A program made the position numbers and the translations under genes. Under the pieces are notes generated by a model. The model worked only from the letters and a program-made list of their open reading frames with translations. It did not search any database and was not told the DNA's origin. From an uncultured Candidatus Saccharibacteria bacterium (GTDB lineage: Bacteria > Patescibacteriota > Saccharimonadia > Saccharimonadales > SZUA-47), in NCBI GenBank assembly GCA_964419675.1, contig CAYQPN010000003.1, forward strand, positions 75,985 through 139,984: a DNA stretch of 64,000 nucleotides. The letters are read 5' to 3'. Positions 39,833 to 42,494 of the stretch are shown here, piece after piece (within the stretch, counting starts at the first letter, position 1; every line of letters starts with the position of its first letter).

Positions 39833-39887
39833 ACTATTATTATACTTGTTGAGGTACTAGTCTTTTTTCTAGACTGTACTAAACAAC

Positions 39888-40235: not shown

Positions 40236-40408
40236 ACTTTTGTTTTTGTTTCTTTACTCAGTCACCTTAGGAGAGAAAAAACGGGCGCGTTATTTCTTCT
40301 CCTTTGAGGTGACCAAGATTTTTTTGTTTGCCCACACTCTTTTTAGTGTGTATATAGGGTGCTAGTCAAAGCGTCTTCTCTTGAATTTCAAGATCAAACA
40401 ACTCTAAC

Positions 40409-40457
40409 TTTTACCTTATAGGAGCGTGAGCTTGATTTTACCTGTATAGGCATGAGC
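40409..40457. repeat. tandem ~24-nt direct repeat abutting the rsmH stop codon
   Basis: TTTTACCTTATAGGAGCGTGAGCT (40409-40432) versus TTTTACCTGTATAGGCATGAGCT (40436-40457). Confidence 0.6.
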
Positions 40458-40458
40458 T

Positions 40459-41355
40459 CTACCCGCCCTTTCTTTTTGTTGTTTTTATTTTCACTGCGAC
40501 TCGTAGCTTCGCACTACGGGCACGCGGATTAAGGACTAATTCATCTGACGCAGCCGTGATGGGTTTCTTTGTTAAAACTCTCAGGTCAGCATCATATCTA
40601 TTCCCGCCATATTCGTTGAAAAATTGTTTTACTAACAAATCCTCAAGACTATGGAACGAAATAACTGCAAGGCGTCCGCCTGGTGCTAGAAGTTTGAGCC
40701 AAATAGGCAATGATTGGCGCAATTGCTCTAACTCGTCATTCACAGCTATTCTAATAGCCTGAAATGTTCTTGTGGCAGGATGTACCCGACTATATCCGGG
40801 CCAAGCCTTGCTAACTATGTTTGCAAGTTCGTGTGTCGATTTAAACGGCCGGTGTTCCACTATAAGCGAGGCTATATGCCTGGCTTTAGGTTCCTGCGCA
40901 TATTCTTTTAAAATACGCGTAAGCTCCTTTTCAGAATACGTATTTACCAAAACTCCAGCACTAAGGGCTTGGTTCTGGTCCATACGCATATCTAGTGGTC
41001 CATCGCTGTTTATAGAAAACCCACGACTCGCTATGTCAAGGTGCGGTGACGACACGCCTAAATCTGCAATAATAATGTCAAATCGTTCTTCTTTATTCAC
41101 TAGCTCTTGGCTAGCTGATAAGAAATCTAACTGACGTATTGAAATATCTGATTTTCCCACAAAACGCTTTTTTAGTGCTTCAACCGCATTATTATCGCGG
41201 TCTACTAACACTGCTGTTGCATTTGTAGCCTTCAGTATTTCGTTTGCGTGTCCACCGTACCCTGCCGTTAAGTCTAAATATGATTCACCCTTTTTGGGGC
41301 TTATCGTCTCTAGTACTTCGCGCAAGAGTACAGGTATGTGATTTTGTTTTGGCAT
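40459..41355 (-). CDS. rsmH: 16S rRNA (cytosine1402-N4)-methyltransferase RsmH
   Basis: 298 aa. HIPVLLREVLE, DLTAGYGGHA, DLGVSSPHLD and SFHSLEDL motifs. Confidence 0.93.
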   Translation of the reverse strand: MPKQNHIPVLLREVLETISPKKGESYLDLTAGYGGHANEILKATNATAVLVDRDNNAVEALKKRFVGKSDISIRQLDFLSASQELVNKEERFDIIIADLGVSSPHLDIASRGFSINSDGPLDMRMDQNQALSAGVLVNTYSEKELTRILKEYAQEPKARHIASLIVEHRPFKSTHELANIVSKAWPGYSRVHPATRTFQAIRIAVNDELEQLRQSLPIWLKLLAPGGRLAVISFHSLEDLLVKQFFNEYGGNRYDADLRVLTKKPITAASDELVLNPRARSAKLRVAVKIKTTKRKGG

Positions 41356-41410
41356 GACTTTTTCTTGTTTATTTTTAGAGGACTATGAGATGGGACAAGC
41401 CCCCTCTCAT

Positions 41411-41463
41411 CGCGCGGTGTGCGGAACAAATCCGACACTCCGGCTGCTCTCCCCAGAAACATC
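41411..41463. repeat. GC-rich motif copy A in the mraZ-rsmH spacer
   Basis: CGCGCGG-[hairpin CGGTGTGCGGA/TCCGACACTCCG]-CCGGCTGCTCTCCCC-AGAAACATC. Confidence 0.55.
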
Positions 41464-41779
41464 TTTCTATTTGTTTTTATTTTTGCAAGGTCACCTAATC
41501 AGCAGCCAACTTTTTGTTTTGAAAAGTTTTTGTTTTTGTTTATCTAAAACGATGCGAATTTCGGAAGTTATGTGTAAGAGATTTAAAAAATCCCTAAATA
41601 ATCTTCTTTCTCATCTGGTTTTAGAAGTTGAGAGACTTATGTGTGAGGTGGAGTTTTGGGAGGTGTTTTTTATGGAATGTACGAAGGTTTTTAATGTGGT
41701 TACCTTAAATCCACATGTTGGTTGCCGATTAGCTAACCTCGAGGCGTGGTATCAAGACACCCCTTCGGGGTTTCTTGGG

Positions 41780-41831
41780 CGCGCGGGGAACGAAATAAAT
41801 TCGTTCATCCGGCTGCTCTTCCCGATGCATC
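41780..41831. repeat. GC-rich motif copy B in the mraZ-rsmH spacer
   Basis: CGCGCGG-[hairpin GAACGAA/TTCGTTC]-CCGGCTGCTCTTCCC-GATGCATC. The flanks match copy A; the hairpin has a different sequence at the same position. Confidence 0.55.
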
Positions 41832-41906
41832 GCTACATCAGAAAAAACTCTTTGGTTTTCTAATCTTTTTTCTTGCTAAATTTTTAATGTACTTAAACTA
41901 TGGATA

Positions 41907-42266
41907 CTACTTAGCGATTATCCGCCAGTAACGTCCTACACTAACGACAGAAATGTCTCGGTCTATTCCGGCATAAGAGAGGAGATGCTGTTCAAGCGTT
42001 ATCCTTCCCTGCTTACCATCTAGTTGAGCCTGGATCTTGCCTGTTCTAAATTGAACGTTCAGATCTGCTACGCGCTCATCTAAGATGTCGCCGTCTAGTT
42101 TTGGTTCCACTAGCTCTTCCCATACCTTTTTAGGATATAGGTGTAAGTAGTGTCCAAACCCGCGGGTGATGACCACTCCATCTGCAAGGCTATCCCGTAG
42201 TTCTGTTGGGATAGTTAGCCGACGTTTCTCGTCTAGCTTGCGTTCGAAGTAATCTACCTTACCCAT
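41907..42266 (-). CDS. mraZ: transcriptional regulator MraZ
   Basis: 119 aa with two SpoVT/AbrB-like half-domains (LDEKRRLTIPTELR and LDGKQGRITLEQHLLSYAGIDRDISVVSVGRYWRI). First gene of the dcw cluster. Confidence 0.85.
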   Translation of the reverse strand: MGKVDYFERKLDEKRRLTIPTELRDSLADGVVITRGFGHYLHLYPKKVWEELVEPKLDGDILDERVADLNVQFRTGKIQAQLDGKQGRITLEQHLLSYAGIDRDISVVSVGRYWRIIAK

Positions 42267-42327
42267 TTAGTGAATGTTTAATCCTTTTAGTGGTTTTTGT
42301 TTTTTAATTTGTTGTAACTGTTTTGGT

Positions 42328-42374
42328 TACCACATTTACCCACTAACAAGAGCATACTACCCACTCGAACCCAC
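42328..42374 (-). promoter_or_regulatory. candidate MraZ operator: phased GTGGGT direct repeats upstream of mraZ
   Basis: On the plus strand, ACCCAC occurs at 42338-42343, 42359-42364 and 42369-42374, with a degenerate TACCAC at 42328-42333. Spacing is 10/21/10 nt. Read on the mraZ strand, these are GTGGGT repeats 70-110 nt upstream of the start. Confidence 0.55.
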
Positions 42375-42494
42375 ATGCAAGTCTTTTTTCTCTGTTTATT
42401 AGAGTTTTTCCACAGTATAAAATTTGTCTACACCACTATCCACAACATATGGTGTTATAAGTGTGTTTAACTACGCTATTGGTTAATTTCCCGA

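Follow-up and report, generated by a model that had tools for sequence, protein, structure and literature searches.

We show that the spacer between mraZ and rsmH in an uncultured Candidatus Saccharibacteria bacterium codes for a conserved and extensively folded non-coding RNA. This RNA reads along the sense strand of the dcw cell-division gene cluster and belongs to a family without a match in Rfam. The analysis covers a 64,000-nucleotide (nt) stretch of the genome (contig CAYQPN010000003.1, positions 75,985 to 139,984 of the forward strand), referred to here as the window, together with related cellular and phage loci that are cited by L numbers. The explanation we favour, with a probability of roughly 0.55, is that of an autonomous, stable RNA that is protected through a boxA element, clamped by a long closing helix (P1) and probably excised, and that binds a conserved partner.

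The dcw genes lie on the minus strand of the window in the order mraZ (42266-41907), a 551-nt gap, rsmH (41355-40459), an ftsL-like gene and a gene for a penicillin-binding protein (PBP). A first-pass annotation, made by reading the letters of the window, had taken this gap for a non-coding insertion carrying a duplicated GC-rich motif, and had offered three interpretations of the motif: a duplicated cis-regulatory RNA within the dcw transcript, a pair of antisense small RNAs (sRNAs), or a mobile repeat that had invaded the operon. The gap is real and non-coding, with no Pfam match and no conserved reading frame. The first interpretation comes closest to our results, in that an RNA is predicted within the dcw transcript, but it is incomplete, the conserved core of that RNA having been overlooked.

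Structure of the conserved RNA

Side-by-side comparison of spacers exposed a conserved core of about 255 nt at 41742-41486 on the minus strand (Table 1). The RNA as a whole measures 255-450 nt, and the stretch enclosed by P1, a long-range closing helix of 23-24 bp, measures 200-290 nt. Canonical pairs make up 96.9% of P1 in 82 distinct sequences. When P1 is taken together with the hairpin P2, 97.1% of the pairs are formed in an 18-sequence alignment assembled from protein similarity, against 20-46% for slid partners, and 13 pairs show compensatory changes; the observed values were reached by none of 500 shuffles. The core also contains an H-type pseudoknot, which was evaluated by permuting column-defined partners: complementarity is 11.1, and exchanging loops and their downstream partners between sequences lowers it to 9.17 ± 0.21, which places the observation about 9 standard deviations above the permuted mean. 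The pairing recurs in diverged forms, among them AGGG/CCCU, AUGG/CCAU, AGUGUAA/UUACACU and CGAUAG/CUAUUG.

The helices are joined by strands that are conserved in sequence. In 24 loci that were found through their proteins and not through the motif, the exact 21-mer of the strand J1 occurs in 22 and its exact 39-mer in 16; the RsmH proteins of the genome-scan loci are only 44-67% identical to that of the window. The long hairpin P3 has a mean fold z-score of -4.2, with z < -2 in 96% of 83 sequences. The strand J2, which follows P3, takes the form CAAAAACAAAAAC-N-AAAAACAAAAA, a strand of CAAAAAC repeats, and CAAAAACAAAAA is invariant in the alignments. As a side observation, the word AAACAAAAAC occurs six times in the window against 0.7 expected, and four of these occurrences fall in untranslated regions of the dcw cluster on the minus strand: one upstream of mraZ (42293-42302), two overlapping in J2 (41526-41541) and one at 40242-40251, which sits 7 nt before the ftsL start codon. 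The word may be an element for protein binding or for translation independent of a Shine-Dalgarno sequence.

Several observations bear on the strand. Read along the dcw sense strand, the helices contain 320 alignment cells with G-U pairs and 95 with A-C; the fold of the whole spacer reaches a z-score of -5.4 for the minus strand, compared with -2.4 for the plus strand; and reading frames are unconserved. From these three lines of evidence we place the RNA on the dcw sense strand. Two explanations that would place the function on the plus strand, a pair of antisense sRNAs ending in terminators and a protein gene that is cryptic or has decayed, appear to us highly improbable. The T-rich runs that follow the hairpins on the plus strand are what the former would lead one to expect, and the 169-residue plus-strand open reading frame (ORF) that was reported does exist. 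A consensus scan of the spacer, however, found neither a sigma70-like promoter nor an intrinsic terminator on either strand, the pair counts and fold z-scores favour the minus strand, and one hairpin of the duplicated motif requires five G-U pairs on the sense strand. As for a gene, no Pfam match was obtained on either strand, the 169-residue ORF included, and its frame is not conserved: counted from a conserved ATG, it runs for 10-133 codons in relatives, most often for 10.

Distribution and novelty

An RsmH scan of genome contigs identified Saccharimonadales (Saccharibacteria/TM7, within the Candidate Phyla Radiation) as the nearest relatives, at identities of up to 67%. The mraZ-rsmH gap spans 250-570 nt in all 17 Saccharimonadales genome loci in which mraZ was found, compared with about 90-150 nt in other phyla, and since the long gap is present in all 17 loci we consider the long spacer ancestral to the clade and not the result of an insertion. 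The premise that mraZ and rsmH are normally adjacent thus holds for other phyla, where tblastn gave apparent gaps of 87-156 nt, but not for this clade, in which every relative has the long gap; nor is the spacer peculiar to this genome. More than 140 relatives have rsmH directly after mraZ, and all of them have a long spacer; the core of about 255 nt was likewise present at every such Saccharimonadales locus examined.

The J1 21-mer was found in at least 120 metagenome loci (L081-L200), from samples that include soil, rhizosphere and groundwater; wherever the contig reaches both genes, mraZ and rsmH flank it and its orientation does not vary. With a profile built from the 5′ half of the core, nhmmer returned exactly one copy in each of 140 loci. 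It returned none in 54 loci of other phyla, none in L024 and L025 (labelled Rickettsia typhi and uncultured bacterium), and none in L018-L021, four saccharibacterial loci with rsmH and no upstream mraZ. In this last lineage an unrelated gene in divergent orientation lies upstream of rsmH, at a distance of about 0.5-0.9 kb; because these loci have neither mraZ nor the RNA upstream of rsmH, the two co-occur. L017 also yielded no profile match, with an upstream flank too short to judge.

Among the 4227 models of Rfam 15, gathering-level matches in the window and in the phage loci were limited to tRNAs, and a permissive scan of ten relatives (E up to 1) returned nothing. At E up to 10, five models matched the spacer, MIR398, Hammerhead_HH9 and TLS-PK2 among them; with at most 20.5 bits against gathering thresholds of 42-95, these matches were dismissed as noise. 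A literature search, which included the literal J1 sequence, found no description of the RNA. All the tests applied here thus point to a new family of RNA, some of whose parts are known.

The mraW RNA motif of Actinobacteria (RF01746) offers a positional analogy only. It too is a structured RNA on the sense strand at the same place, between mraZ and mraW/rsmH, and it has been seen transcribed in Corynebacterium by RNA-seq (PMC4046766, PMC5784534). Its covariance model, however, does not match window positions 41250-42000 at E up to 10 or the ten relatives at E up to 1; it comes from another phylum and spans about 110 nt, as opposed to 255-450 nt here; and the J1 and J2 strands, the closing 23-bp helix and the phage copies are not known for it.

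Table 1. Positions in the window of the RNA, its elements and the adjoining genes, in the direction of the dcw sense strand
Feature	Position	Strand	Evidence and remarks
mraZ	41907..42266	-	119 amino acids, short form typical of the clade; ORF and Pfam MraZ (4.7e-15); 6054 homologues
boxA-like GUACAUUAAAA	41882..41892	-	9/11 positions of GYTCTTTAANA; invariant block in closest relatives
Module copy A	41751..41847	-	Covariance model, 86.8 bits; fold, covariation; contains the element 41780-41831 of the first-pass annotation
Copy A, hairpin P0 (3′ strand GGGAAGAGC)	~41848-41815	-	Fold
Copy A, hairpin Pa	~41813-41781	-	Fold
Copy A, hairpin Pb	~41777-41753	-	Fold
P1 5′ arm UCGAGGUUAGCUAAUCGGCAACCAAC	41717..41742	-	Pairs with 41486-41510; 97-98% standard pairs; compensatory at 10/24 pairs
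P2 hairpin AUGUGG/CCACAU	41716-41711 with 41699-41694	-	Covariation
H-type pseudoknot, loop AAGGU (41706-41702) with ACCUU (41688-41684)	41684..41716	-	Complementarity test
GUACAUU box	41682-41676	-	Alignments; GYACMUU in the family, ahead of J1
J1 ACACCUCCCAAAACUCCACCUCACACAUAAGUCUCUCAA	41666-41628	-	Near-invariant 39-nt strand, almost no G, two CACCUC boxes; alignments
P3, variable long hairpin	41541..41627	-	Free sequence; 46-123 nt in relatives
J2, A/C-only strand AACAAAAACAAAAAC..AAAACAAAAA	41511..41540	-	Leads back into P1
P1 3′ arm GUUGGCUGCUGAUUAGGUGACCUUG	41486..41510	-	Invariant UAGGUGA; conserved G.G mismatch
Module copy B	41389..41479	-	53.8 bits; contains the element 41411-41463 of the first-pass annotation; Pa and Pb (41410-41385) kept, P0 not evident
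rsmH leader (..AAAAAUAAACAAGAAAAAGUC AUG)	41356..41388	-	A-rich, no Shine-Dalgarno; from sequence; relatives and ftsL have comparable A/C-rich leaders
rsmH (16S rRNA m4C1402 methyltransferase family)	40459..41355	-	ORF and Pfam Methyltransf_5 (1.6e-92)

The accessory module

The duplicated GC-rich motif is an optional three-hairpin peripheral domain of the larger RNA; it is neither mobile nor the functional heart of the system. The duplication itself was confirmed. A repeat search recovered two 44-nt copies that align without gaps at 75% identity, one at 41411-41454 and the other, 369 nt away, at 41780-41823; the 64 kb contain two instances of the flank pattern GAGCAGCCGG-N-CCGCGCG, against 0 expected from shuffles; the central hairpins differ in a compensatory manner (GAACGAA/TTCGTTC versus GTGTCGGA/TCCGCACAC); and the neighbouring hairpins that had been listed were found by the repeat search and by folding. 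The motif is therefore a structured RNA unit with covarying hairpins, as had been proposed, but not the main feature of the spacer, since of about 140 relatives only about 20 have it, as an additional domain on the 5′ side. This count (~15% of the spacers) derives from a covariance model of the module (R1). The 3′ strand of hairpin P0 is a conserved GGGAAGAGCA, Pb consists of GAGAAAC..GGUGUCUC with a conserved A.G mismatch, and the P0 of copy A is the hairpin that requires the five sense-strand G-U pairs. Among 22 copies, in an alignment fitted to the model, 93.6% of the module cells are paired, compared with 72.6% in shuffles and 37-56% for slid partners.

The module adjoins the 5′ side of P1 in sense orientation, with the exception of an inverted copy in L015 and of the second copy of the window, which lies on the 3′ side of P1. 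The inverted copy is slightly degenerate, with GGGAAACGCAG and one mismatch in Pb. The closest relatives, which were found through MraZ, place the two window copies in context. L201, at 97% MraZ identity, has the 5′ module with a Pb remodelled by compensatory changes, its contig ending inside P1; L206 and L207 have the 5′ module only, and L204 and L205 have none. The 3′ copy is absent from L204-L207 and from every other relative with a complete spacer, and its position holds unrelated hairpin insertions in other genomes. Given that the nearest complete spacers have either the 5′ module alone or no module, the 3′ copy is, so far, specific to the genome of the window.

Two copies in one spacer and an inverted copy in L015 are what a small mobile or repeat element, comparable to a repetitive extragenic palindrome (REP) or a miniature inverted-repeat transposable element (MITE), might leave on invading an operon. 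We give this explanation, too, a very low probability. With filters off, the covariance model found no third copy in the window, and about 925 kb of related DNA held no confident copy outside the mraZ-rsmH spacer; the position of the module is fixed against P1; and a scan of viral contigs with the module pattern gave weak matches only, of at most 24 bits. The motif search in the window and its relatives and the comparison of mraZ-rsmH spacing, by which the first-pass annotation had suggested checking its observation, found a motif that stays in the spacer and a long spacing that is clade-wide. A weak partial match of 16.9 bits (GGGAAAAGCAGUCCGA plus a hairpin) was noted in L136 at locus positions 1354-1447 on the minus strand, beyond rsmH and about 1.4 kb downstream of the core; it may be a chance match or a diverged copy in the next spacer.

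A boxA element ahead of the RNA

A box of the form G[CU][AU]C[ACU]UUAACAAU lies 20-60 nt past the mraZ stop codon, always upstream of both the module and the core. Scored against the boxA consensus GYTCTTTAANA (PMC5725501), 19 of 126 loci have a perfect box and 36 a box with one mismatch, where 0.002 and 0.026 are expected per region; the 55 loci with at most one mismatch correspond to about 15 times the background. By its sequence, the box is a candidate Nus-factor antitermination signal of the rrn type, placed ahead of the RNA.

In the leaders of ribosomal RNA (rRNA) operons, boxA stands ahead of the long-range leader-trailer helix, the RNase III processing stem, inside which an untranslated structured RNA lies. 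The arrangement described here is similar, as a boxA consensus is followed by a long-range helix of at least 20 bp (P1, 23-24 bp) around an untranslated structured RNA. It differs in that the enclosed RNA is a non-rRNA of 200-290 nt within a protein-coding cluster, and boxB and boxC were not identified. Long untranslated transcripts that are rich in C and poor in G are typical targets of Rho termination. Two reports describe a Nus-factor complex that protects such RNA from Rho and aids its folding (PMC4807359, PMC10250234).

The second point of comparison is with suhB and other mRNAs regulated through boxA. In these, as here, boxA is untranslated and belongs to a gene with a link to ribosome biogenesis, rsmH being a gene for 16S rRNA modification; of the boxA targets predicted in that study, about 25% are related to translation (Baniulyte et al. 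2017, PMC5725501). In those mRNAs, in contrast, boxA lies less than 50 nt from the start codon, acts repressively and is without a large structured RNA, whereas the Saccharimonadales box lies 100-450 nt upstream and ahead of a complex RNA.

Copies of J1 in phages

Two scans of IMG/VR with parts of J1 identified 11 distinct phage contigs that contain GYACMUU..(A)CACCUCCCAAAACUCCACCUCACACAUAAGUCUC, none of which has mraZ or rsmH (L208, the two near-identical records L210 and L211, L212-L214 and L271-L275). Two further matches of the first scan, L209 and L215, were discarded as chance or coding matches by their appearance. The neighbours of J1 are the small and large terminase genes in L208 and L210, an endolysin gene in L212, L213, L272 and L273, an HNH endonuclease gene in L271, and an array of about 18-20 tRNA genes in L214. 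P1 and boxA are absent from the phage copies. In L272, the J1 block is preceded at 42 nt by a promoter-like site matching 11 of 12 positions; just downstream of J1, both L272 and L212 have strong hairpins. Because phage contigs carry the J1 block without mraZ and rsmH, their existence argues that the block works independently of rsmH.

Some phage copies have a context of their own. In L208 and L210/L211, an extended -10-like box (TGGTATAAT) lies about 260 nt upstream of the J1 block, and about 200 nt before J1 are conserved (for instance ..AATTCAnCnnnACAUACGGG.. and ACCUCGCA), a pattern that suggests a longer phage-specific RNA in these contigs. In the 42-kb contig L214, positions 332-2956 hold two convergent tRNA arrays, with the J1-containing RNA at the end of the minus-strand array. 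A tRNA-array setting is known for the orphan non-coding RNAs ROOL and GOLLD, which the single J1 motif within the phage tRNA array of L214 recalls. More generally, the RNA shares with orphan non-coding RNAs such as ROOL, GOLLD, HEARO, OLE and raiA a large intricate fold, strong conservation and an association with phages, and it bears a loose likeness to 6S RNA in its closing stem, big internal loop and terminal hairpin, although at about 40/30 nt its internal loop greatly exceeds the 6S bubble in size. From all of these it differs in that no Rfam model matches it and in that the host copy is embedded in an operon and not free-standing.

The phage copies also raise the possibility that selection acts on DNA, with J1 a protein-recognition site (a phage cos or pac site, an attachment site or an operator) common to phages and hosts and the RNA structure secondary. 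The phage block stands between the lysis and terminase modules, a frequent place of cos sites and late-region boundaries; homology between host and phage is limited to about 35-60 nt with sharp edges; and promoter and terminator calls on the phage copies are inconsistent. The host block, on the other hand, lies within helices in which abundant compensatory changes and the G-U bias of the sense strand indicate selection at the level of RNA. Hosts also keep the block in one orientation with respect to boxA and rsmH; the stretches examined beside the phage copies contained no integrase; and none of the 140 host loci has a prophage junction at J1. We accordingly consider a DNA-level element improbable.

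Proposed mechanism and alternatives

In the autonomous-RNA explanation that we favour, the RNA would be made as part of a transcript running from mraZ to rsmH, or from just after mraZ. The boxA element would load antitermination factors of the NusB/S10 type, in the manner of rRNA operons, and would thereby allow RNA polymerase to cross 250-550 nt of untranslated, C-rich and G-poor RNA without Rho termination; the boxA complex may further aid the long-range folding of P1, as for the helix between rRNA leader and trailer. Once clamped by P1, the RNA would function on its own, probably released by a cut within or close to P1, and its exposed J1 and J2 strands would bind a conserved cellular partner, more likely a protein or ribonucleoprotein (RNP) than an mRNA. 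The module would most likely stabilise or scaffold the flanks.

Several points weigh against this explanation. Transcription, processing at P1 and action in trans are all steps that we infer. In minimal versions of the RNA, P1 ends about 25-30 nt before the rsmH start codon, a placement typical of cis leaders. Promoter and terminator scans give no consistent picture of the phage copies, which could be DNA-level sites. The inverted module of L015 (2600-2689), standing at the usual place, is hard to square with a role of the module in a sense-strand RNA. The boxA of the window matches only 9 of 11 positions of the consensus taken from PMC5725501, and no 16S sequence lies in any of the retrieved loci from which the rRNA boxA of this clade could be read. 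The metagenome loci, at least 120 in number, were selected by the J1 21-mer; they are thus uninformative on the invariance of J1 and may hide stand-alone cellular copies. Neither of two comparisons, finally, pointed to a target. Duplex energies of J1 with the 70 start regions of the window (64 kb only) were no better than those of shuffled J1, and local alignment of J1 (ACACCNCCC, UCACAC, AAGUC, CACCUCC) to the 3′ domain of E. coli 16S rRNA was no better than that of shuffled sequences (p = 0.14-0.42). An antisense seed to ribosome-binding sites and a mimicry of the 16S 3′ domain, the two roles for J1 addressed by these shuffle controls, are both unsupported.

The principal alternative is a cis leader, that is, a 5′ untranslated element for rsmH and the downstream division genes whose J1/J2 junction would be bound by a small ligand, a protein or the ribosome. 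Such an element could act on Rho-dependent termination, with J1 and J2 as a rut site opposed by boxA, on mRNA stability, or on an rsmH initiation independent of a Shine-Dalgarno sequence. The position is strict, upstream of rsmH in all loci, with the 25-30 nt between P1 and the AUG of minimal versions; no terminator separates the RNA from rsmH; the J2 word CAAAAACAAAAAC is also found in the leaders of rsmH, ftsL and mraZ; and J1 and J2 are C-rich and G-poor, as rut sites are. Precedents exist in the actinobacterial mraW motif, transcribed from the same place, and in the regulation of mRNAs such as suhB by boxA (PMC5725501). Against a cis leader stand the phage J1 blocks that occur without rsmH or other dcw genes; several of these close a unit at its 3′ end or face their neighbours convergently. 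An invariant strand of 39 nt is more than a rut site or a simple standby site needs, and rsmH has no Shine-Dalgarno sequence for boxes resembling anti-Shine-Dalgarno sequences to mask. We regard the cis leader as possible but doubtful; the phage copies are the reason why the autonomous role is ranked slightly above it.

For the autonomous RNA, candidate partners can be named only speculatively: Rho, RNA polymerase, S1 or the 30S subunit, or proteins that bind the CACCUCC 3′ end of 16S rRNA. An extended proposal, to which we assign somewhat less than even odds, is that the RNA represents a new class of autonomous, RNP-forming RNAs common to Saccharibacteria and their phages. It would be made like a miniature rRNA, with boxA and excision at a processing stem from a division operon; the partner of the invariant J1 would be a core machine, for example Rho, RNA polymerase, the 30S subunit or a factor binding the 3′ end of 16S rRNA; and stand-alone J1 RNAs of phages would capture the same partner in infection.

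Bacteria of the Candidate Phyla Radiation, Saccharibacteria among them, have tiny genomes, and to our knowledge almost no regulatory RNAs have been described for them. In this setting it is of interest that the most conserved cluster of cell-division genes contains an intricately folded RNA, order-wide and 250-450 nt long, which would add a family that RNA databases lack. J1 stays nearly constant over its 39 nt, although the proteins on either side have diverged to 50-60% identity, and constraint of this degree usually marks contact with a core machine. The boxA element ties the RNA to Nus-factor transcription, its neighbour rsmH ties it to ribosome maturation, and the phage copies suggest a part in infection, as a target or as a tool. 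The RNA opens a testable way into gene regulation in organisms that are otherwise very hard to study, and possibly into the link between their division and ribosome biogenesis.

Neighbouring genes and additional observations

Upstream of mraZ, a promoter-like site at 42442-42414 (TGGATA-17-TATACT) is the only sigma70-like match in the region. Downstream of it, four direct repeats of (A/T)GTGG(G/T) lie at 42329-42375 on the minus strand, with start-to-start distances of 10, 21 and 10 bp, and resemble the classical MraZ operator array, as in E. coli Pmra. Many genes of the window have TATAAT 5-12 nt before their ATG, for example at 39833-39847 upstream of the PBP gene, and a Shine-Dalgarno-like motif was found in only 13 of 55 window genes, which suggests that leaderless mRNAs are widespread in the window. 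The PBP gene, which is ftsI-like, appears to have its own promoter, and for this reason the dcw cluster may not be a single operon.

A likeness of the P1 3′ arm, at AGGUGAC, to a hairpin before ftsL was examined and rejected as a coincidence, the hairpins of relatives at that place being unrelated. The spacer between rsmH and ftsL also contains a conserved ORF of 19 amino acids at 40394-40453 on the minus strand, which reads MPIQVKSSSRSYKVKVRVV in the window and MPIQVKSRSRTYKVKVKVI in L010 and is present in L001-L016, L204 and L206 with synonymous differences among relatives. The ORF has a good Shine-Dalgarno sequence, which lies partly within the end of rsmH, and is followed by a GC-rich hairpin of variable sequence and by the A/C-rich ftsL leader; it probably encodes an unannotated small basic protein.

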